From Gammaproteobacteria bacterium (GTDB lineage Bacteria; Pseudomonadota; Gammaproteobacteria; UBA4575): 64,000 bases of DNA. The position numbers and the translations under genes are program-made. The stretch is from positions 64,001 to 128,000 of the forward strand of contig CBDCUI010000008.1 in the NCBI GenBank assembly GCA_965222615.1, in the 5' to 3' direction. Positions 2,525-50,433 of the stretch are shown piece after piece (positions within the stretch are counted from its first letter, which is position 1; every line of letters starts with the position of its first letter). The notes under the pieces are model-generated. The model saw only the letters and a list, made by a program, of their open reading frames with translations. It was not told where the DNA came from and ran no database searches.

Positions 2525-2966
2525 AAACATCACAGAGCCACTCGTTATTCATCGAATTTTTAAATCCAAACGTATAGAAGTTTTCAAAGCATTCACAACT
2601 CCTGAGCTCTTAAAACAATGGTACTCCCCTTCTTCTGATATTACGCTTGAATTAATAAAATATGATTTACGGGTTGGTGGTCATTACCAAATTATTTATA
2701 GCCTTCCTGATAAAAATAAAGCCGTGTTGAAGGGTGAGTTCACAACGTTAACACCACCAGAGGAATTGTGCATGAGCTGGACGTGGGAACACGATGAACC
2801 TCACGGCATATCTTCCAACGTACGGATACAGTTTATAGAACAAGGCGATACAACAGAAGTAATTATTACTCACAAACAACTACCATCTATAGATGAAATA
2901 ACCCGTCATCATCAAGGTTGGATTAGTACACTTGAAAGGTTAGATGATTTAGTCACTAGTAACTAA
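2521..2966 (+). CDS. SRPBCC/AHSA1 (START-like) domain protein; true start unclear, possibly frameshifted
   Basis: Motifs VFKAFTTPELLKQWY, DLRVGGHY and HHQGW...LERL. The coupled ATG at 2521 is out of frame with the domain. Confidence 0.75.
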
Positions 2967-2979
2967 AAAGGAGTCACTA

Positions 2980-3396
2980 ATGTTTTCCATTCCGATTACA
3001 TCAATTATCGCCGCAATTTTTGCAATTACAACATTTGTCCTCTCCTGGATAGTATCCATGCGTCGAGCTGCATTAGGAAAAGCTGCAAATGATTTAACCG
3101 GTTTCAGTTTGGGGGATGCGGGTGATGAAATTCTACTAACAAGAAGAGAAACCCTGCGAAACTTTTGTGAATATGTCCCCATATGTTTACTGTTACTGTT
3201 ATTAATAGAAGTACAAGGTGCTACAGCTACTCTTGTATGGACCATAGGCGGGTTATTTGTACTAGGCAGGATCCTGCACGCTTTTACCATGTTGAAGATT
3301 CCAAACGTTTTACCTACCAGAATATTTGGAATGCTCACCACTTATACTGCACTATTAATTCCTGCAGGATGGTTGCTATTGAATGCAATCAGATAG
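2980..3396 (+). CDS. MAPEG family membrane protein
   Basis: NFCEYVP and GRILHA motifs; AGGAG SD upstream. Confidence 0.85.
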   Translation: MFSIPITSIIAAIFAITTFVLSWIVSMRRAALGKAANDLTGFSLGDAGDEILLTRRETLRNFCEYVPICLLLLLLIEVQGATATLVWTIGGLFVLGRILHAFTMLKIPNVLPTRIFGMLTTYTALLIPAGWLLLNAIR

Positions 3397-3772
3397 CATT
3401 GAATATACTCCATTGATTTCTTAACCTTAAATAAAGATTTGTCAGTTTTGTTAATTGGGGGTGAATTCATCCTATCCCGTCAATGCAATCGTGTCTGGTC
3501 CCTTTGATTTGCTCAGGACTTGCCTTTAATCTAGCTTTAAGTGATATCAGTGAAGTGGGTGGGTGCGGAGACGGTTAGTGTAGCACCAAGTTCTGCCGAT
3601 TCAGCTAAATCAAGAGATACAGTCAAATTAGTTATTTTTATTGTAGATTGTAAACCAATGTAAATTTCACTATTAGAAGTTAATAAATTACATAGATTGA
3701 CAATATTTTGTATTATTAGCATGTTATATAAAAACACCAATAATAATAAATATATAAAAAAGGAAAAAAACT

Positions 3773-4504
3773 ATGCAATTGTCAAAAAGTCTTATAGCTG
3801 AATTCATTGGCACATTTTGGCTAGTATTGGGTGGTTGTGGAAGTGCAGTGTTGGCAGCGACGTTTATGTCAAGTGGTGCCATGATTGGAGAAAGTATTCA
3901 TTTTCCTCTTGGTATTGGTTTAGTCGGTGTGTCTTTTGCATTTGGTCTAACCGTTGTAACTATGGCCTATGCGATTGGGCACATATCTGGTTGTCATTTA
4001 AATCCAGCGGTATCAATTGGCTTAACTGCAGGGGGACGTTTTCCGGCAAGCCATTTGATCCCTTATATTATTGCCCAAGTGTTAGGCGCAATTGTTGCTG
4101 CAGGTGTCCTGTATTTAATTGCAAGTGGAAAAGCTGGTTATGAAGGTGGTCTTGCGTCAAATGGTTTTGCAGATCGATCGCCAGGTGGTTATAGCATGAT
4201 GGCAGCTTTAATATGTGAGATTGTGATGACATTTATTTTCTTGATGGTAATTTTAGGGGCAACAGATAAACGTGCTCCTGCAGGTTTTGCGCCCATTGCA
4301 ATCGGCTTGTGTCTAACACTTATTCATTTAATTTCAATTCCGGTAACGAATACATCTGTTAATCCCGCTAGAAGTACAGGGCCTGCACTTTTTGAAGGGG
4401 CTGCAGCATTGGGTCAACTATGGCTGTTTTGGGTGGCCCCTATTATAGGAGCAGTTATTGCGGGTGTAGTTTATAAATTGGCATTTGAGGAGAACGATAA
4501 CTAA
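3773..4504 (+). CDS. aqpZ: Aquaporin Z
   Basis: [18 protein letters not shown] plus two NPA motifs (HLNPAVS, SVNPARS). Confidence 0.95.
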
Positions 4505-4543
4505 GGCAATTGAATTTGTAAAAACCACTTACTGCTCATGATC

Positions 4544-4577
4544 AAGGTGTATAGCCACGTAGCTATACACCTTTTTT
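4544..4577 (+). terminator. Rho-independent terminator after aqpZ
   Basis: AAGGTGTATAGC-cacgta-GCTATACACCTT followed by a T run. Confidence 0.8.
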
Positions 4578-4677
4578 ATTTTCTTTAAGCAAGTTTTGAG
4601 TAAAAATATTAATTATTTCAAATGCCACTTTTAAGCACCATATTTGACAAGATCAAAATAACGCCGAAGGGCTAATT

Positions 4678-5169
4678 ATGAAAAAGCGAATTTATGGTTT
4701 AATTTTGTCTATATTAATTACATTAACAGCGTGTTTAGATGAGCAGGGTATATCGTCTGAACAAAATGACTTAGCAAATGCAACAACTCCGGTATCAGAA
4801 GAAGAAATTAGAAAACGGCAACAACAAATGTTTCAAGAGGCCGCTGATGCACCAAGGCAGTTTCGTGAAGGTTTGAAAGAAAATTGTCCTTACTTTAATT
4901 CAGTTTTACTAACGACTGCAGAAACTATCCAGCTTGGTACAAGAGTTTTTAATGCAGGGGGAATCAGTCTTACCAACCGCATATACGAAGGAACAGTTTA
5001 TAAGATTTTGTTTACCATAAAAGATGAATGTATGGACCTAAGTGATGTATTACAGGCCGGTATAGCAACCGCTGAGACTAAAGAAAGTTACCATGATAAG
5101 GCATGGGCGCTGCGCGATACCCTTGATCTCATCATGGGGGGACCACCTACTAAGCCTCCTGGTGGTTAA
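4678..5169 (+). CDS. Hypothetical lipoprotein
   Basis: Signal peptide with lipobox LTAC. Confidence 0.6.
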   Translation: MKKRIYGLILSILITLTACLDEQGISSEQNDLANATTPVSEEEIRKRQQQMFQEAADAPRQFREGLKENCPYFNSVLLTTAETIQLGTRVFNAGGISLTNRIYEGTVYKILFTIKDECMDLSDVLQAGIATAETKESYHDKAWALRDTLDLIMGGPPTKPPGG

Positions 5170-45532: not shown

Positions 45533-46204
45533 TTATATATCCTCCATAATGGCATTCAGTGTTTTAGCCTGATCAATCATTGGTCCTAATGAAGAGATGT
45601 CGGGTACTGACTGTACTCGGTTTTGTATTTGATTTGCTTCGGCCAAGGTATGGTACAAACGTTCAGAATCTTGCTGTGCTAAATCCTGTACCGAATCTAT
45701 TCCTGCATATACCATCAACTCAGAAATCTGCCCTTCTATTCCAGAGATACGCATGAGGTCACACATACTGGCCCATTTGCGTACTACAAAATCTTCTATA
45801 CCTACTTTTTCTGCCACTTGAATGCGTCCCTCTAGATTGCAGCATTTTTCCAATAATTCTTGGGTAGTGGTTATGCCCATTTCACGTATCGATTTGCCAT
45901 AAGACGCACCGATACCTTCTACCTCTTCGATGGGATAAGCTATTGATTCTGTTGGGGTTATTACTTCAGCTAGTGGTTCTGCAATGGTCGCTGTTGTAAT
46001 GGGTGTTTCGGCTGTTGTGCTAGAGAGCTTGCGTTGTAGATCGTCACGTTCACTTTCAATTTTAGCTAACTTGGCCTGCCAACCTTTATCTAATTCAGCA
46101 AGCTCATCTCGGTAGAATAATTTTTTTAACAACCAACCTACAATTGCGCCAATGAGTGCTGCGAGCAATAAACAAAACCACATTTGTTGAATTAAATAAC
46201 TCAT
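45533..46204 (-). CDS. DUF4332-like helix-hairpin-helix protein with N-terminal TM
   Basis: IEEVEGIG, W...CDLMRISGI and AGIDSV.DLA. Confidence 0.75.
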   Translation of the reverse strand: MSYLIQQMWFCLLLAALIGAIVGWLLKKLFYRDELAELDKGWQAKLAKIESERDDLQRKLSSTTAETPITTATIAEPLAEVITPTESIAYPIEEVEGIGASYGKSIREMGITTTQELLEKCCNLEGRIQVAEKVGIEDFVVRKWASMCDLMRISGIEGQISELMVYAGIDSVQDLAQQDSERLYHTLAEANQIQNRVQSVPDISSLGPMIDQAKTLNAIMEDI

Positions 46205-47049
46205 GGTTGAAGCCCCTTTACTTTAAATTCAATTCTTCTATTTTTTGCTAAGCCTTCTTCAGTTTCATTGTCAGCAATCGGTTGCGATTCACCATAACCT
46301 ACTGCAGTTAATTGAGAGGAATCGATGCCTTTGCTTACTAGATAAGATAATACTGCGGATGCACGTTCTTGGCTTAGGCGTAGATTGTATTCGTCCTTAC
46401 CCCGTGAGTCTGTATGCCCACCAATCTCGATTTCAGCATCTGGGCATTGTTTAGTAACTTCTACTAAGTCATTGAGCAAATTGTAACTAGATGTCTCAAT
46501 CTCAGCGCTATTGGTCGCAAAGTGAATTTTATTTGTGCTAAGTAATAAGTCGAAGTCTTGTTGGCAAGTGTATTCTGGTAACGGCTCTAATTTAGGTGTC
46601 GCCAGTACCGTTTCTGGTTGTTCAATTGGCAACTCTTCAACTGTTGAGGGCTCTTCTATTATTGGTAGTTCTTCAACAGTAGGAGGTTCTTCTATTATGG
46701 GTGGTTCCTCACTAGTCGTCATAGGTTCTGGTTGTTCGATTACTTCTTCGTCAGGATCTGACTTCGGTATTACTACAACGAGTCGGTTATTAACAGTACG
46801 TACACCATATACATTCTTAACTAATTTCCCCGCCCGTTTTCTTATCTTGTTACTTGCGACTTTACCGGTGAGTGCTACATCGCGGCCATCGATAGATACA
46901 TTTATATCTTTAAGACCTTCTATCGCCAGCGATGCAACCGTGCGTGTTTGAACGTCGTTTTGAATTTCGGTGCGATGTTGATAGATGCAAAAATAACCAA
47001 GAATTGCTAGTAGAGTTAAACCTAGCAATATGATTAAACCTTTACTCAT
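46201..47049 (-). CDS. BON plus OmpA-like domain membrane protein
   Basis: BON (GRDVALTG..GVRTVNNRL); OmpA C-domain (GHTDSRG, NLRLSQERA, NRRIEF). Confidence 0.9.
   Translation of the reverse strand: MSKGLIILLGLTLLAILGYFCIYQHRTEIQNDVQTRTVASLAIEGLKDINVSIDGRDVALTGKVASNKIRKRAGKLVKNVYGVRTVNNRLVVVIPKSDPDEEVIEQPEPMTTSEEPPIIEEPPTVEELPIIEEPSTVEELPIEQPETVLATPKLEPLPEYTCQQDFDLLLSTNKIHFATNSAEIETSSYNLLNDLVEVTKQCPDAEIEIGGHTDSRGKDEYNLRLSQERASAVLSYLVSKGIDSSQLTAVGYGESQPIADNETEEGLAKNRRIEFKVKGLQP
46621..46710 (-). repeat. Five imperfect 18-bp coding tandem repeats (EEPPII EEPPTV EELPII EEPSTV EELPIE)
   Basis: Read from the translation and the DNA. Confidence 0.8.
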
Positions 47050-47273
47050 CCAACTCCTCCATTACTATTTTTGAAGTATTGTTTTGTAATGTGCACACTG
47101 TAATATTAATCGTTGCAGTGCTAACTTAATATGATGAGCATTTAAATTGTGCTAAGGCTAACCTAATCACATGCTGCTTGCAATAGTGAAATATTGTTAC
47201 AATTTTGTATTAAAAGAGTTTTCTATATTAAATTGTAATAGTAATGACTGTATATAAAAGTTGTTATCGTTTG

Positions 47274-47489
47274 TTAAGTTAGTCTTTCGTAATTAGGAAA
47301 TGTACAAAATAGAATATCTTCTCCAAAATATACTCGTGGAAATATGCTTTGGGGAAGCCACTCTTTTTTCATCTTAACTTTTTCCATTCTACGTTTCGAC
47401 TTATTATTTTTTCGATGTACACAACCTTTAAATAGCAAAGGGTGATTGTATAATGGATTACGTCTGCACAATTTTGCTTTTTTACTCAT
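47274..47489 (-). CDS. Small basic protein, candidate ArfA-like ribosome rescue factor
   Basis: AGGAGG SD; K/R-rich RNPLYNHPLLFKGCVHRKNNKSKRRMEK..KKEW; hairpin within the 3' CDS. Confidence 0.55.
   Translation of the reverse strand: MSKKAKLCRRNPLYNHPLLFKGCVHRKNNKSKRRMEKVKMKKEWLPQSIFPRVYFGEDILFCTFPNYERLT
47318..47357 (-). other. mRNA hairpin inside the 3' coding region of the 47274-47489 gene
   Basis: CUUCCCCAAAGCAUAUU-uccacg-AGUAUAUUUUGGAGAAG; 15 of 17 positions pair, counting two G-U pairs. Confidence 0.65.
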
Positions 47490-47505
47490 ATTGACCTCCT
47501 ATCTG

Positions 47506-47742
47506 TTAACTAATTTGAGTTACTTTGCTAAAAGTACCTTCTTGAATAGCTTTATTGATGTATTCCATAAAAAAGATGGTTTTATCCTCTGCTTTCAATA
47601 CATTATCTTCGATATCATTCAATGGCACAGGAAAACTGTATAGCATTTCACTATAAGGTACAGGCACAGCATAGTACGCTACACCTTGCTGGTAACGTAA
47701 AAATTTTGCTTTAGCATTACTGATTATATTGTTAGCTTTCAT
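47506..47742 (-). CDS. Small hypothetical protein (FPVP...EDK...YI family), paralog 2
   Basis: AGGTG SD; shares motifs with 47781-47999. Confidence 0.7.
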   Translation of the reverse strand: MKANNIISNAKAKFLRYQQGVAYYAVPVPYSEMLYSFPVPLNDIEDNVLKAEDKTIFFMEYINKAIQEGTFSKVTQIS

Positions 47743-47780
47743 AGTTCACCTATATAAAACTTCGTATTTAAACAATAAAA

Positions 47781-47999
47781 TTATGCTGCCTTAGCTTTAT
47801 CCAGTTTTTCGGCGTGAGCTTTGATGTATGGATAAAAGCGTTTAGCGCGGTCTTCATTTAAGAAAACCGACTGCCCTGATCCCTTAATTGGTACAGGAAA
47901 TTTAAAACCGCTATCCGTGCGGTACCACAATTTTCCAGACAAGAAAAACATGAAGCGCACGCTTTCATTGTCATTTATGATTTTTTCTAAATTTTTCAT
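47781..47999 (-). CDS. Small hypothetical protein (FPVP...EDR...YI family), paralog 1
   Basis: AGGTG SD; shares motifs with 47506-47742. Confidence 0.7.
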   Translation of the reverse strand: MKNLEKIINDNESVRFMFFLSGKLWYRTDSGFKFPVPIKGSGQSVFLNEDRAKRFYPYIKAHAEKLDKAKAA

Positions 48000-48081
48000 G
48001 TTGTCACCTATTTAAAAATTGTCCTCTAGTTGGGTCTGTTATATGTGATAAATCGCTAATCTAATAAAATCATTGGGCATG

Positions 48082-48115
48082 AAAAAACCCCGGTGCTCAC
48101 GCTACCGGGGTTTTT
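48082..48115 (-). terminator. Intrinsic terminator upstream of the first operon gene (attenuator)
   Basis: On the - strand: AAAAACCCCGGT-agcgtgagc-ACCGGGG-TTTTTT. Confidence 0.8.
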
Positions 48116-48165
48116 GATTTAGTCCGGAAGGTGAGCTACGACCTTCCGGTATATGGAAAGTCTCG

Positions 48166-48315
48166 CTACAGGATGCTTTTTACCTGCCCAAATATATGCC
48201 TTAGTAAATAGATCGGGCTACAGAGCATCTTGCTACTTGTGCGCATAAACACCACGGTGTTAGCCCATGATAGGGCCCCTGTGCGCAATCTTGTTTTTTG
48301 CATAAAAATATTCAT
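48166..48315 (-). CDS. Putative leader peptide, 49 aa (MNIFMQKTRLRTGALSWANTVVFMRTSSKMLCSPIYLLRHIFGQVKSIL)
   Basis: Translated by hand (below the ORF-track cutoff). ATG is 9 nt after a TATAGT -10 box; stop is 16 nt before the hairpin at 48124-48149. Confidence 0.5.
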   Translation of the reverse strand: MNIFMQKTRLRTGALSWANTVVFMRTSSKMLCSPIYLLRHIFGQVKSIL

Positions 48316-48324
48316 CGGCGGCGA

Positions 48325-48352
48325 ACTATACTCTTATAAAAATGAATTGCAA
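48325..48352 (-). promoter_or_regulatory. Putative sigma70 promoter
   Basis: TTGCAA-16 nt-TATAGT on the - strand. Confidence 0.5.
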
Positions 48353-48486: not shown

Positions 48487-48978
48487 CTACTGAATAAATT
48501 CCCAGCGCTTATAGCGGATATACTGATGCATTAACTTATAACCCTCTCGAGTTTCATCTGCAGCTTGTTGACTAACGGTTTGCCAAGCAACTTCATTAGC
48601 ATGAGGGAGATTTTTTTTAAGGGCAGTAAGAAACCCAAGATCCTCATTAATTTGGTTGGTGTCTAGATGAGTTTTGTTTTCTGATGTGTAAGTAAGGGTG
48701 CTATTAGAAAAACTACTTTCATTTAGCTTAAAAACCAGTGAAAATGGATTATTGTGAATAGTAGTGAAGTTAAATTCATAGGCCTTACTAAAAGGGGCCC
48801 TCCCAAAAAAGACCGAGGCGTGATTTAACTTTGATTTAGCGATGTTGTTGCCAATTTTTTTATGACTGGCGCTCGAAGCGGTTTGTTCTAGGTGAGAACA
48901 GTTACTAAAGAGCAAGATTGCCGCTAAAACAAAAATAAGCCTTTGAAGAACATATACCTTCATGTAAAACACCTCCAA
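48487..48978 (-). CDS. Hypothetical protein, possible lipoprotein
   Basis: Hydrophobic N-terminus ending FSNC. Confidence 0.45.
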   Translation of the reverse strand: MEVFYMKVYVLQRLIFVLAAILLFSNCSHLEQTASSASHKKIGNNIAKSKLNHASVFFGRAPFSKAYEFNFTTIHNNPFSLVFKLNESSFSNSTLTYTSENKTHLDTNQINEDLGFLTALKKNLPHANEVAWQTVSQQAADETREGYKLMHQYIRYKRWEFIQ

Positions 48979-49108
48979 CCGATACTCCAGTGTAAGCCAC
49001 TGTAAAATAAGTGAGCTGATAGGGACGTTAGAAAGCGGTAATTTACAGACAGATGGTGAGGAACCCTACGGTAAGTATGTAAATCTATGATTAATATATA
49101 TGAATTTA

Positions 49109-49969
49109 TTAAGGGATACTCGTGACAGCATAATCTTTTACATATTTTGGTAATGGTTTTTTCTCTCCACTATGCAGTTTTTCTAGCTCTGTAAATATAC
49201 GAATACGGTCTTCTGTAGATGGATGTGTGTTTAAAAAATTTGGTATTTTGGAAGAACCTATAGCTTCATTTTGAATGGATTGAAAAAATTCTGCGGCACC
49301 TGAGGCATGCCCGTAGTATTTTAGCAGTAAATCCGTCGCGGTCTCGTCGGCCGAAGCTTCTTGGTTACGACTGAACGCTAAATTTGCGATGGATGCAGTT
49401 GGACCAAGAAATTGTTGCACAAAATCACTACCATCTGCCCCAACTAAAGCAAGTAAAAATAAGCCGACCACAATGCTTCTACCGGTACTGCGTAAAGGAT
49501 GCCTTTCATAATGATGTGCCATTTCATGTGCTAGCACCATACTGAGTCCATTCTCAGATTCTACTGATTGTAGTAATCCTCTAGTTACTACAATGTGTCC
49601 GCCTGGGACTGCAAAAGCATTTGCATCGTCAAGCGCCGTTACCGCTACAGTAAATTGGTGTTTTGAAAAATTATCTTCAGTGACACTATGCAGTTGATTC
49701 ACTAGTGTTTGCAAATAATGCTGAACTTTTTCTCCCTCAGCACTACTATCAGAAGGAAAAGGCATTATATATACTTTTTCTTTTCCAAATAGAGATTGCT
49801 CATATTCAATTGGAATGTACCCAACCAAATGATCTGCAGCAAACCCAAGAATTATTACTGCTATTAAAACTAACCCAATTGTCCCTGCTGTTAAAATGAA
49901 AAAAGGTTTTAATGGATGTTCAGGGGTTACATTAATTCCTTCTGGAGGTTGAACAGGGGTATATTTCAC
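49109..49969 (-). CDS. M48 family metallopeptidase
   Basis: NAFAVPGG, AHEMAHH, FSRNQE..AD and THPS..RI. Confidence 0.9.
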   Translation of the reverse strand: MKYTPVQPPEGINVTPEHPLKPFFILTAGTIGLVLIAVIILGFAADHLVGYIPIEYEQSLFGKEKVYIMPFPSDSSAEGEKVQHYLQTLVNQLHSVTEDNFSKHQFTVAVTALDDANAFAVPGGHIVVTRGLLQSVESENGLSMVLAHEMAHHYERHPLRSTGRSIVVGLFLLALVGADGSDFVQQFLGPTASIANLAFSRNQEASADETATDLLLKYYGHASGAAEFFQSIQNEAIGSSKIPNFLNTHPSTEDRIRIFTELEKLHSGEKKPLPKYVKDYAVTSIP

Positions 49970-50433
49970 TACAAATTATTTTCAATAGAAACAGCTGTAC
50001 CATAAGCAAGAACTTCTACTGCACCTACACTATTTCTACGTCGGCTGTTTTTACTTATAGATGAAGTTTCTACGCGAGCATTCATAACAACAAATGCACT
50101 AGAAAGTTGTGCTTGTTCTTTCATGCGCAGTAATGCTTCTCTGCGTGCGCGATCTAGTAGTGATTCATAAGGCGTGATTTTGCCACCGAATAACATTTTT
50201 AGAGAAGCCACGAATTTTTTAAAGAAGTCAATCGATATCACTACATTCCCGCTCACCAGCTCGGTATGTAAACGATTGTGCTTTATCAAAGGTGGAGTTT
50301 TTAATGTAACAATAGGAATATCTAAAGTAGCTTTTTCTCTTTCAATAATAGATTTGAAATGCCTTTTTTCAGCTCGTTGACCAAAGATATAGCCAAGAGC
50401 AAGTAAGGTTAGCAGTACGCCTAATTCAGTCAT
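49969..50433 (-). CDS. YbjQ/UPF0145 family protein with N-terminal TM
   Basis: FGG....YE.LL.RARREA..RM and EVLAYGTAV. Confidence 0.85.
   Translation of the reverse strand: MTELGVLLTLLALGYIFGQRAEKRHFKSIIEREKATLDIPIVTLKTPPLIKHNRLHTELVSGNVVISIDFFKKFVASLKMLFGGKITPYESLLDRARREALLRMKEQAQLSSAFVVMNARVETSSISKNSRRRNSVGAVEVLAYGTAVSIENNL

Follow-up and report, generated by a model that had tools for sequence, protein, structure and literature searches.

Two kinds of described system come closest to the locus reported here. In leader-peptide attenuators of the trp/his/thr type and in antibiotic-resistance stalling attenuators, a promoter-proximal translated open reading frame (ORF) is followed by overlapping hairpins and an intrinsic terminator, and the position of the ribosome decides which fold forms. 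The second kind comprises the ribosome rescue factors ArfA (E. coli, PF03889), BrfA (B. subtilis) and ArfT (F. tularensis), which are small basic proteins. ArfA recruits RF2, and its loss is synthetically lethal with that of ssrA. As far as PMC8012679 describes them, both arfA and brfA are expressed from truncated mRNA under the control of trans-translation, a terminator precedes the stop codon of brfA, and BrfA is contained in the PDB (6SZS); further small rescue factors that homology searches miss are expected there. In the account of PMC6299226, F. tularensis has neither ArfA nor ArfB, and ArfT is argued not to be regulated like ArfA. A wider ArfT family is listed in the supplementary data of PMC6514570, according to that article. 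Many bacteria possess tmRNA and no recognised back-up rescue factor. Here we describe a candidate in a 64,000-nt stretch of DNA (the window; G+C content 38.7%) from a Gammaproteobacteria bacterium (GenBank assembly GCA_965222615.1, contig CBDCUI010000008.1, positions 64,001 to 128,000). On its - strand a predicted leader-peptide attenuator precedes three small genes, g1, g2 and g3. The locus as a whole is best explained as an attenuator-controlled unit in which g3 would encode a back-up rescue factor made from a non-stop message, a reading to which we give a probability of about 0.45.

The features of the operon, which lies entirely on the - strand, are collected in Table 1; coordinates are positions in the window. 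An initial annotation of this DNA had described a promoter, a leader ORF, a hairpin, a terminator and three genes with Shine-Dalgarno (SD) sequences, and all of them are present at those positions on the - strand and conserved in related genomes. In a DNA search the locus was found in 12 of 41 related genomes: the window's own, 11 of 24 others of the same bacterial family, and 0 of 16 from other families. The conserved leader and terminator that the annotation had asked for in homologous loci were recovered as well, since the arrangement of leader ORF and hairpin is present in 22 of 22 distinct loci. The attenuator motif is single-copy in the genome. Its exact pattern was recovered from 14 of 56 genomes of the order, each with one copy, and never away from this locus. 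It is g1, and not g3, with which the leader is associated: in the 12 loci of the DNA search g1 is always accompanied by it, and distant g3 homologs are found without it.

Table 1. Features of the attenuator and the g1-g2-g3 operon (window coordinates; nt, nucleotides; aa, amino acids)
Feature	Position	Strand	Remarks
-35 hexamer TTGCAA	48352-48347	-	pattern scan
-10 hexamer TATAGT	48330-48325	-	pattern scan; 16-nt spacer to -35
sigma-70-type promoter, whole	48325-48352	-	9/12 consensus matches
leader ORF	48315-48166	-	49 codons plus TAG; ATG 9 nt after -10; no SD
segment A GACTTTCC	48162-48155	-	3 nt past leader stop; partner B
segment B CCGGAAGGTC	48149-48140	-	partner A or C
segment C AGCTCACCTTCCGG	48137-48124	-	partner B, or D as antiterminator
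hairpin CCGGAAGGT/ACCTTCCGG	48149-48124	-	B:C
segment D CCCCGGTAGCGTGAGC	48110-48095	-	terminator 5' arm side; also pairs with C
segment E ACCGGGG	48094-48088	-	terminator 3' arm
T6 run	48087-48082	-	after segment E
intrinsic terminator CCCCGGT..ACCGGGG plus T6	48110-48082	-	upper stem GC/GC closes GUGA loop
near-invariant 15-nt box GACCCAACTAGAGGA	48036-48022	-	between terminator and g1 SD (alignments)
g1	47999-47781	-	72 aa, SD; phrog_20427 family
g2	47742-47506	-	78 aa, SD; paralog of g1
g3	47489-47274	-	71-aa basic protein, SD; stop 47276-47274
g3 hairpin	47365-47310	-	about 24 bp, codons 42-60 (about nt 126-180 of the 216-nt ORF)

The promoter scan called five promoter-like sites in the region, against a mean of 6.6 in shuffled sequences, and hence no excess. 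The promoter is believable all the same because both hexamers are near-invariant in an alignment of 12 related loci. A G+C-rich discriminator (TCGCCGCCG) directly follows the -10, and the leader ATG stands 9 nt from the -10 without exception in the loci L001-L009. From this conserved ATG the frame remains open in each of the 22 distinct loci, over 36 to 56 codons and with 13 lengths in all. In the same loci, 1 to 8 and 0 to 8 stops are counted in the two other frames, and dinucleotide shuffling puts the chance of an open frame at 0.004 to 0.46 per sequence. In all 22 loci the leader stop lies 14 to 20 nt before the GGAAGGT of segment B. The middle of the leader is divergent and contains indels. 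Near-invariant across genera are both promoter hexamers, the initial ~25 nt of the transcript, segments A to E with both loops, and the T-run; a CAGGTGAAA element is near-invariant in the alignments as well. Synonymous variation was seen by eye in two peptide motifs of the alignment, FMRA (Arg as CGC/CGG/CGT, Ala as GCA/GCC/GCG) and Q-V-K (CAG/CAA, GTA/GTG/GTT). The open frame, the fixed distance of the stop and the synonymous differences in the motifs are good evidence that the leader ORF is translated.

Downstream of the leader stop, the five segments can form mutually exclusive terminator and antiterminator folds in 22 of 22 loci. When the terminator 3' arm (E) is left out, A:B plus C:D is the minimum free energy (MFE) structure in every one of them. 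In full-length RNAs the MFE structure contains the terminator, as does the RNAalifold consensus, and B:C is part of it in 5 loci of the first set of 12 and about as often in the remaining ten. A consensus scan had missed the terminator because its loop is 9 nt. The C:D pairing joins GCUCAC to GUGAGC in the terminator loop and CCGG to CCGG; its use of these bases would explain why the loop sequences are invariant. GGAAGGT of segment B is invariant in the 12-locus alignment and differs by one base in 3 of 22 loci, and segment A varies only between C and U, opposite G of B (by eye). The B:C helix is 89.9% paired and the terminator helix 94.9%; together they are 92.4% paired as against 30 to 52% when the arms are slid, and C:D is 93.9% paired as against 32 to 51%. 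Two pairs are changed on both sides in the terminator (upper stem, CG to UA in 3 sequences), and one compensatory change was found in C:D (L037). Covariation is scarce because the columns hardly vary. The proposed structure thus rests mainly on conservation and on thermodynamics in every ortholog, with little added by covariation. Two further pairings were considered and set aside. Pairing of the CAGGTGAAA element with C or A is lost from L006, L007 and L009 (by eye). Applied to the leader as a whole, RNAalifold gave 4 pairs between A and the 15-nt box, which show no covariation. The box stands at a variable distance from the g1 SD and contains AGAGGA, which is SD-like or GGA-containing; a sigma-32 or CsrA reading of it was considered.

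We consider an attenuator of this design highly probable, judging from the comparison of the loci. The locus would be a single transcription unit under ribosome-mediated (leader-peptide) transcription attenuation, and RNA polymerase would start 1 to 3 nt ahead of the leader ATG. A ribosome with a stop codon in its A site covers about 9 to 12 nt beyond the codon. Segment A, at +4 to +11 after the stop, is taken to be the masked stretch because it falls inside that footprint. In the OFF state, a closely following ribosome at the leader stop would cover A (3 to 11 nt past the stop); with A masked, B:C and then D:E would form, and transcription would end at the T-run. With a ribosome that is late, stalled upstream or never loaded (the ON state), A:B would form first. 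B would then be occupied and C therefore free for D, the C:D antiterminator would form, and the polymerase would read into g1-g2-g3. The operon would in this way be induced when translation lags behind transcription. Alternatively, the conserved C-terminal Q-V-K-x3-stop may make the switch sense the speed of termination. A G+C-rich discriminator is a trait of stringently controlled promoters, and its presence here, together with the invariant 9-nt distance from -10 to ATG, fits a translation-linked promoter.

The proposal of the initial annotation that a leader-peptide attenuator stands ahead of the genes is therefore upheld by comparative evidence, namely a short ORF right after the promoter with its frame kept, and the alternative folds, in all loci compared. 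Classical leader attenuators differ from it in several respects: there are five segments here and not four, no regulatory codon run is present, the leader is near-leaderless, and the predicted default in the absence of a ribosome is readthrough. The kind of switch is known; we regard this element as a new instance of it whose five-segment, near-leaderless build is unusual. That it is a classical amino-acid-sensing attenuator, responding for example to Met or Cys supply, is hardly credible. Met is apparently frequent in the leader peptides (by eye, not computed), and there is a weak resemblance to the Rfam His_leader family (RF00514; 25.5 bits against a gathering threshold of 49), but none of the 22 peptides contains a tandem run of any one codon that could mark a sensed amino acid (by eye), and the downstream genes are not biosynthetic. 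It is also improbable that the stretch 48325-48082 is a stand-alone small RNA (sRNA) and that g1-g3 are expressed from a separate promoter near the 15-nt box. The strength and invariance of the terminator, the invariant box between it and g1, and a fold z-score of -3.15 for the 251-nt promoter-to-terminator stretch would suit such an RNA. Against it stand the leader frame, open in all 22 loci with a fixed spacing between its stop and the hairpin, and the C:D antiterminator, which accounts for the invariant loops without it. No promoter was called at the box, and the sole match between terminator and g1 (9/12, at 48007-47980) overlaps the g1 start. No Rfam family reached its gathering score anywhere in the window; at permissive E-values only sub-threshold leader or sRNA look-alikes appeared, driven by the terminator.

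The third gene, g3, has a conserved core of about residues 1 to 47 with the sequence RN(P/L)LH(N/D)HPL(L/M)xKGGxHxK..K..R(R)..K...KKEW; a simpler consensus is RNPLxNHPLLxKGxVHxK..K..RR..K...KKEW. The tail after the Trp varies in sequence and length. A long hairpin starts at the Lys-Lys-Glu-Trp codons, and in the window the g3 stop codon follows 33 nt past it. Across 14 loci of the lineage the hairpin has 24 pairs with 83% of cells paired, as against 40 to 54% when slid. Ten pairs are changed on both sides as against 3.9 +/- 1.5 in shuffled alignments, and 0 of 500 shuffles scored as high. A basic third protein with a hairpin inside the 3' part of its ORF had been noted in the initial annotation, and that hairpin covaries. 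Of the 14 loci, 12 have the stop codon past the hairpin (nt 67-130) and two, L004 and L010, in its loop. By a six-frame profile search, g3 is present in 22 of 56 genomes of the bacterial family. In 9 of these 22 the profile match continues past a stop codon, so that the conservation there is at the RNA level.

This is the layout of arfA. Both ORFs are small (about 72 codons in arfA) and encode basic proteins; in both, a conserved N-terminal or central core is followed by a hairpin of ~20 bp within the ORF and ahead of the stop codon, and then by a poorly conserved tail. Folding of E. coli arfA (K-12 record) placed its hairpin at nt 153-195 of the 219-nt ORF. We propose that the g3 ORF runs into its hairpin after the basic core of ~47 residues and that g3 transcripts end or are cut there, by termination or by RNase III. 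In this lineage the message would then have no stop codon, its product would therefore be tmRNA-tagged, and g3 protein would accumulate only when trans-translation is saturated. Such control would follow the logic of arfA and brfA. The ribosome would be the target of the g3 protein, whose most likely role would be that of a back-up rescue factor. We hold a role of g3 in translation or on the ribosome to be likely; the more specific claim, that it is made from a non-stop mRNA and is a rescue factor, is offered tentatively.

The lineage appears to offer an open functional niche for such a factor, because tmRNA, SmpB and RNase III are present, ArfA is absent and ArfB nearly so. The genome of the window encodes tmRNA, SmpB and RNase III. 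A six-frame search of it for ArfA gave no match at E<=1, and its only two RF-1-domain genes are both of RF1/RF2 size, so that no ArfB was found. In the 56 genomes of the bacterial family, ArfA was found in 0 and a short ArfB-like RF-1 ORF in 2. BrfA and ArfT likewise come from lineages that, as far as the cited accounts go, have no ArfA and ArfB; ArfT differs from g3 in size (40 aa according to PMC6299226, against 71 aa). The distribution is not complementary, and genera without g3 also have no ArfA or ArfB. Complex prediction with the genome's own RF2 and g3 residues 1-50 gave scores of 0.33, 0.12 and 0.13, which speak neither for nor against binding. In the literature, we found no paper that joins an alternative ribosome rescue factor to leader-peptide attenuation and none that contains the g3 motif strings.

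Relatives of g3 extend well beyond this lineage. In a protein database 191 clusters were found at E<=0.01, and those with a source name are called hypothetical. A metagenome scan for g3 gave 39 loci. Counts for distant homologs refer to 26 of these; the 8 close relatives of the window's lineage (L077-L083, L115) were left out, as were L096, L097, L098, L110 and L112, whose g3 protein is identical or almost identical to that of a retained locus. In 24 of the 26 distant loci, a hairpin of 21 to 33 pairs starts within ~15 nt of the conserved Trp codon (z -2.5 to -7.9), and the stems share no common sequence between lineages. The two others are L113 with a 10-bp hairpin and L111 with neither the Trp nor a hairpin. 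A g1-family gene stands beside g3 in 6 of the 39 loci (L077, L078, L079, L081, L082, L115), all of them close relatives, and the attenuator motif is present in four of these (L077, L079, L082, L115). The g3 homolog is located inside a same-strand tRNA array of 2 to 22 tRNA genes in 8 of the 26 distant loci, and in 5 of the 8 tRNA-Asp(GTC) is directly downstream of it. In 6 of the 39 loci, typA/bipA starts 110 to 250 nt downstream of the g3 homolog on the same strand; these six represent one or two related clades, with BipA proteins 83 to 100% identical. On this sequence comparison, g3 belongs to an unnamed and fairly widespread family that is marked throughout by a long hairpin at a fixed codon and occurs in translation-linked contexts.

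Some details of these loci may be recorded here. The tRNA arrays are those of L085, L087, L088, L089, L092, L095, L101 and L103, and the g3 homolog often stands between tRNA-Ala and tRNA-Asp(GTC). The typA/bipA loci are L100, L104, L107, L109, L110 and L114; in these the g3 ORFs terminate within the hairpin, with the endings ...RAAA, ...RLAA or ...SAA. Several g3-homolog tails end in Ala-Ala (SLIAA, VLRAA, SRAAA, GRAAA, SRLAA, SRSAA, LSAAA). They recall the C-terminal end of the ssrA degradation tag, and we treat this as a resemblance only. In L086 a tail-specific protease (Prc/Tsp) gene (2687-4750, - strand) is convergent to the g3 homolog, a single case that may be due to chance. No family in Pfam, NCBIfam or PADLOC was matched by g1, g2 or g3. 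In the scan of g3 and its orthologs the only Pfam match at E<=10 was to FBPase_C (E 0.12). The protein does contain a KGG tripeptide, but it gave no match to the KGG repeat model, which was presumably among the models scanned. A lead to DUF7230 (ESM Atlas, 0.81, among otherwise unnamed clusters) was not confirmed by Pfam scans of g3 relatives.

The paralogy of g1 and g2, also proposed earlier, is clear from BLASTP (26% identity, E 3e-5) and from the nearly full-length match of both to the phrog_20427 profile (g1, E 9.7e-15; g2, E 5.1e-9). Profile searching among 1.84 billion representatives yielded 812 relatives at E<=0.001 and 152 at E<=1e-10. Members of the family are mostly 70 to 100 aa and some are tandem fusions. 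It occurs in 22 phage records, all of them jumbo phages of 308 to 462 kb. Among 300 genomes drawn evenly from the class it turned up in 2, which both belong to this bacterial family; a search of plasmids gave no match. Most of the family comes from phage and metagenome sequences. The members in phage records are single genes, whereas g1 and g2 are chromosomal, duplicated and placed behind an attenuator. In phage GAP32 (L068, 313634-313855) the g1-family gene comes right after a tRNA-Arg gene within a tRNA cluster, and in phage XacN1 (L067) it is near ORFs annotated as NAD+ synthetase and glutamyl-tRNA amidotransferase.

This distribution, in jumbo phages and in so few genomes of the class, raises the alternative that g1-g3 are a domesticated phage or mobile cassette (e.g., a toxin-antitoxin or counter-defence system) with no role in host translation. 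We judge that very improbable. The order g1-g3 is kept between the same chromosomal neighbours across genera, PADLOC gave no match for any of the three, and neither g3 in phage records (at E<=1) nor the g1 family in plasmids was matched. By tblastn, g1 also shows 78 to 96% aa identity in the 11 other loci, across genera. The upstream flanking 163-aa ORF has 32 to 43% and the downstream OmpA/BON protein 42 to 53% identity across the 12 loci, so g1 is constrained much more strongly than its neighbours. By the same search, g2 is missing in L010, L011 and L012 and g3 in L011, which consists of leader and g1 only. In L003 (genome G009, 1817-2137), g1 matches in two frames (residues 1-55 and 52-72) and the g2 match covers residues 35-76 only, possibly due to frameshift and decay or to an assembly error in this 240-contig genome.

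An AF2 model of g1 from 69 sequences (pLDDT 92.3, pTM 0.79) replaced an earlier mediocre one from 19 sequences (pLDDT 66.5). It predicts a helix, three strands, a loop, a short strand and a long helix. Neither g1 nor g2 gave a sequence match in the PDB. Foldseek with the g1 model against the PDB gave nothing at E<=0.001 (best E 0.35), and a BFVD fold search returned only uncharacterised phage proteins. In a wide VIA-align search the best row was the NusA S1 domain (Z 4.1, root-mean-square deviation 3.4, 59 residues aligned), which is below the caution level of 8 of that tool, and many S1/OB-type RNA-binding rows were among the weak matches (Z 2.8 to 4.1). The S1/OB likeness in the model is only a lead. 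In our proposal, g1 and g2 would be small beta-rich proteins, probably RNA- or ribosome-binding, although taken by itself we rate binding to RNA or the ribosome as possible and rather doubtful. They may be translation-stress effectors, as suggested in the initial annotation.

Several observations weigh against the reading of the locus as a rescue operon behind an attenuator. Covariation in the attenuator is thin, limited to the two terminator pairs and the one C:D pair described above, and L030 and L032 break the C:D pair that is compensated in L037. An untranslated leader would read through in the proposed model, unlike in the trp operon, and no conserved element was found with which A could be sequestered when no ribosome is there. 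The fold search with g1 went no higher than Z 4.1. The g3 stem here is rich in A+U, and no clean T-run follows it. The search for similarity to known rescue factors was negative. Neither g3 nor any of 9 orthologs matched the Pfam ArfA model at E<=10, the hhalign probability for the g3 profile (28 sequences) and the ArfA profile (4 sequences) was 0.27%, and g3 profiles against all PDB chains gave no match at E<=10. The motif KGKGSY of the C-terminal tail, invariant in the ArfA alignment, is absent from g3 (also as KGKGS), which has K(S/T)NKSKRR at the comparable place. The HPLL of g3 looks like the DPLF of ArfA, and hhalign against E. coli ArfA aligns only three of these columns (PLL/PLF). Nor was similarity to BrfA or ArfT detected in the PDB and Pfam profiles, a comparison that contained no ArfT sequence. 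The initial designation of g3 as ArfA-like therefore holds for its layout (basic core, in-ORF hairpin, unconserved tail) and fails for its sequence. We regard g3 as an apparent analog of arfA and brfA in layout and not a detectable member of those families; it also differs from ArfA in its place in an operon behind a leader-peptide attenuator.

The position of the g3 stop codon in distant homologs, another difference from ArfA, counts on the same side. It lies inside the hairpin in 15 of the 26 distant loci (5' arm 3, loop 3, 3' arm 9) and downstream of it in 10, with L111 not scored. In those 15, simple termination after the hairpin would keep the stop codon, because it lies inside the hairpin. 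In several distant homologs (L090, L106, L107, L086, L100, L104) a U-run follows the hairpin, and these hairpins may be just terminators. It is accordingly possible, if rather unlikely, that the attenuator is real while the g3 hairpin is only a terminator or mRNA-stabilising end overlapping the 3' end of a short ORF. The g3 protein would then be a small basic ribosome- or nucleic-acid-binding protein, for example ribosome-associated or tRNA-linked, that is not made from a non-stop mRNA and is not a rescue factor. The missing similarity to ArfA, BrfA and ArfT is in line with this, and the tRNA-array and typA/bipA contexts suit any translation-linked role. Mere termination accounts poorly for a hairpin that always starts at the same codon and for stems of 21 to 33 bp, which are far longer than those of usual terminators. 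The tails after the Trp are unconserved, and the lineage has no ArfA and nearly no ArfB. In the window's lineage the stop codon mostly lies past the hairpin (12 of 14 loci), and a transcript ending at the hairpin would therefore not contain it.

If the rescue-factor reading of g3 is extended to the whole family, g3 would found a widespread, unnamed family of RF-dependent rescue factors beside ArfA, BrfA and ArfT. The family would be gated by a hairpin at a fixed codon and travel with tRNA arrays and typA/bipA. In this lineage it would be joined to ribosome-acting g1/g2 proteins, whose family also occurs in jumbo phages, all under an attenuator that gauges the pace of the ribosome against that of RNA polymerase. 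We put this wider view forward as speculative and, on balance, unlikely in full. What the locus does supply is a concrete candidate family that can be recognised by its RNA signature and searched for by its sequence motif. In this lineage the regulatory switch would tie g3 expression to the state of translation. The tRNA arrays and the attenuator would also give a first functional context for a large unnamed family of jumbo phages and metagenomes.

The genes around the operon (45533-47049 and 48487-50433) are of envelope type and encode an OmpA/BON protein, a DUF4332/HhH protein, an M48 peptidase, YbjQ and the 163-aa ORF, which has a hydrophobic N-terminus. Scanning these neighbours against Pfam revealed no translation-related gene. 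The initial annotation had looked to a link with rtcB/prfH-type genes, and among the scanned neighbours none is present. ARAGORN found no tRNA or tmRNA in the window. No terminator-like site was called by the pattern scan from g3 as far as 46900, a range that takes in the start of the next gene at 47049. Between g3 and the OmpA/BON gene, at ~47170-47210 (- strand), lies a conserved stretch TTGCAAG..N..GTTAGCCT, which is also found in L003, L004 and L006-L009. From its sequence, it looks like the own promoter region of the OmpA/BON gene.

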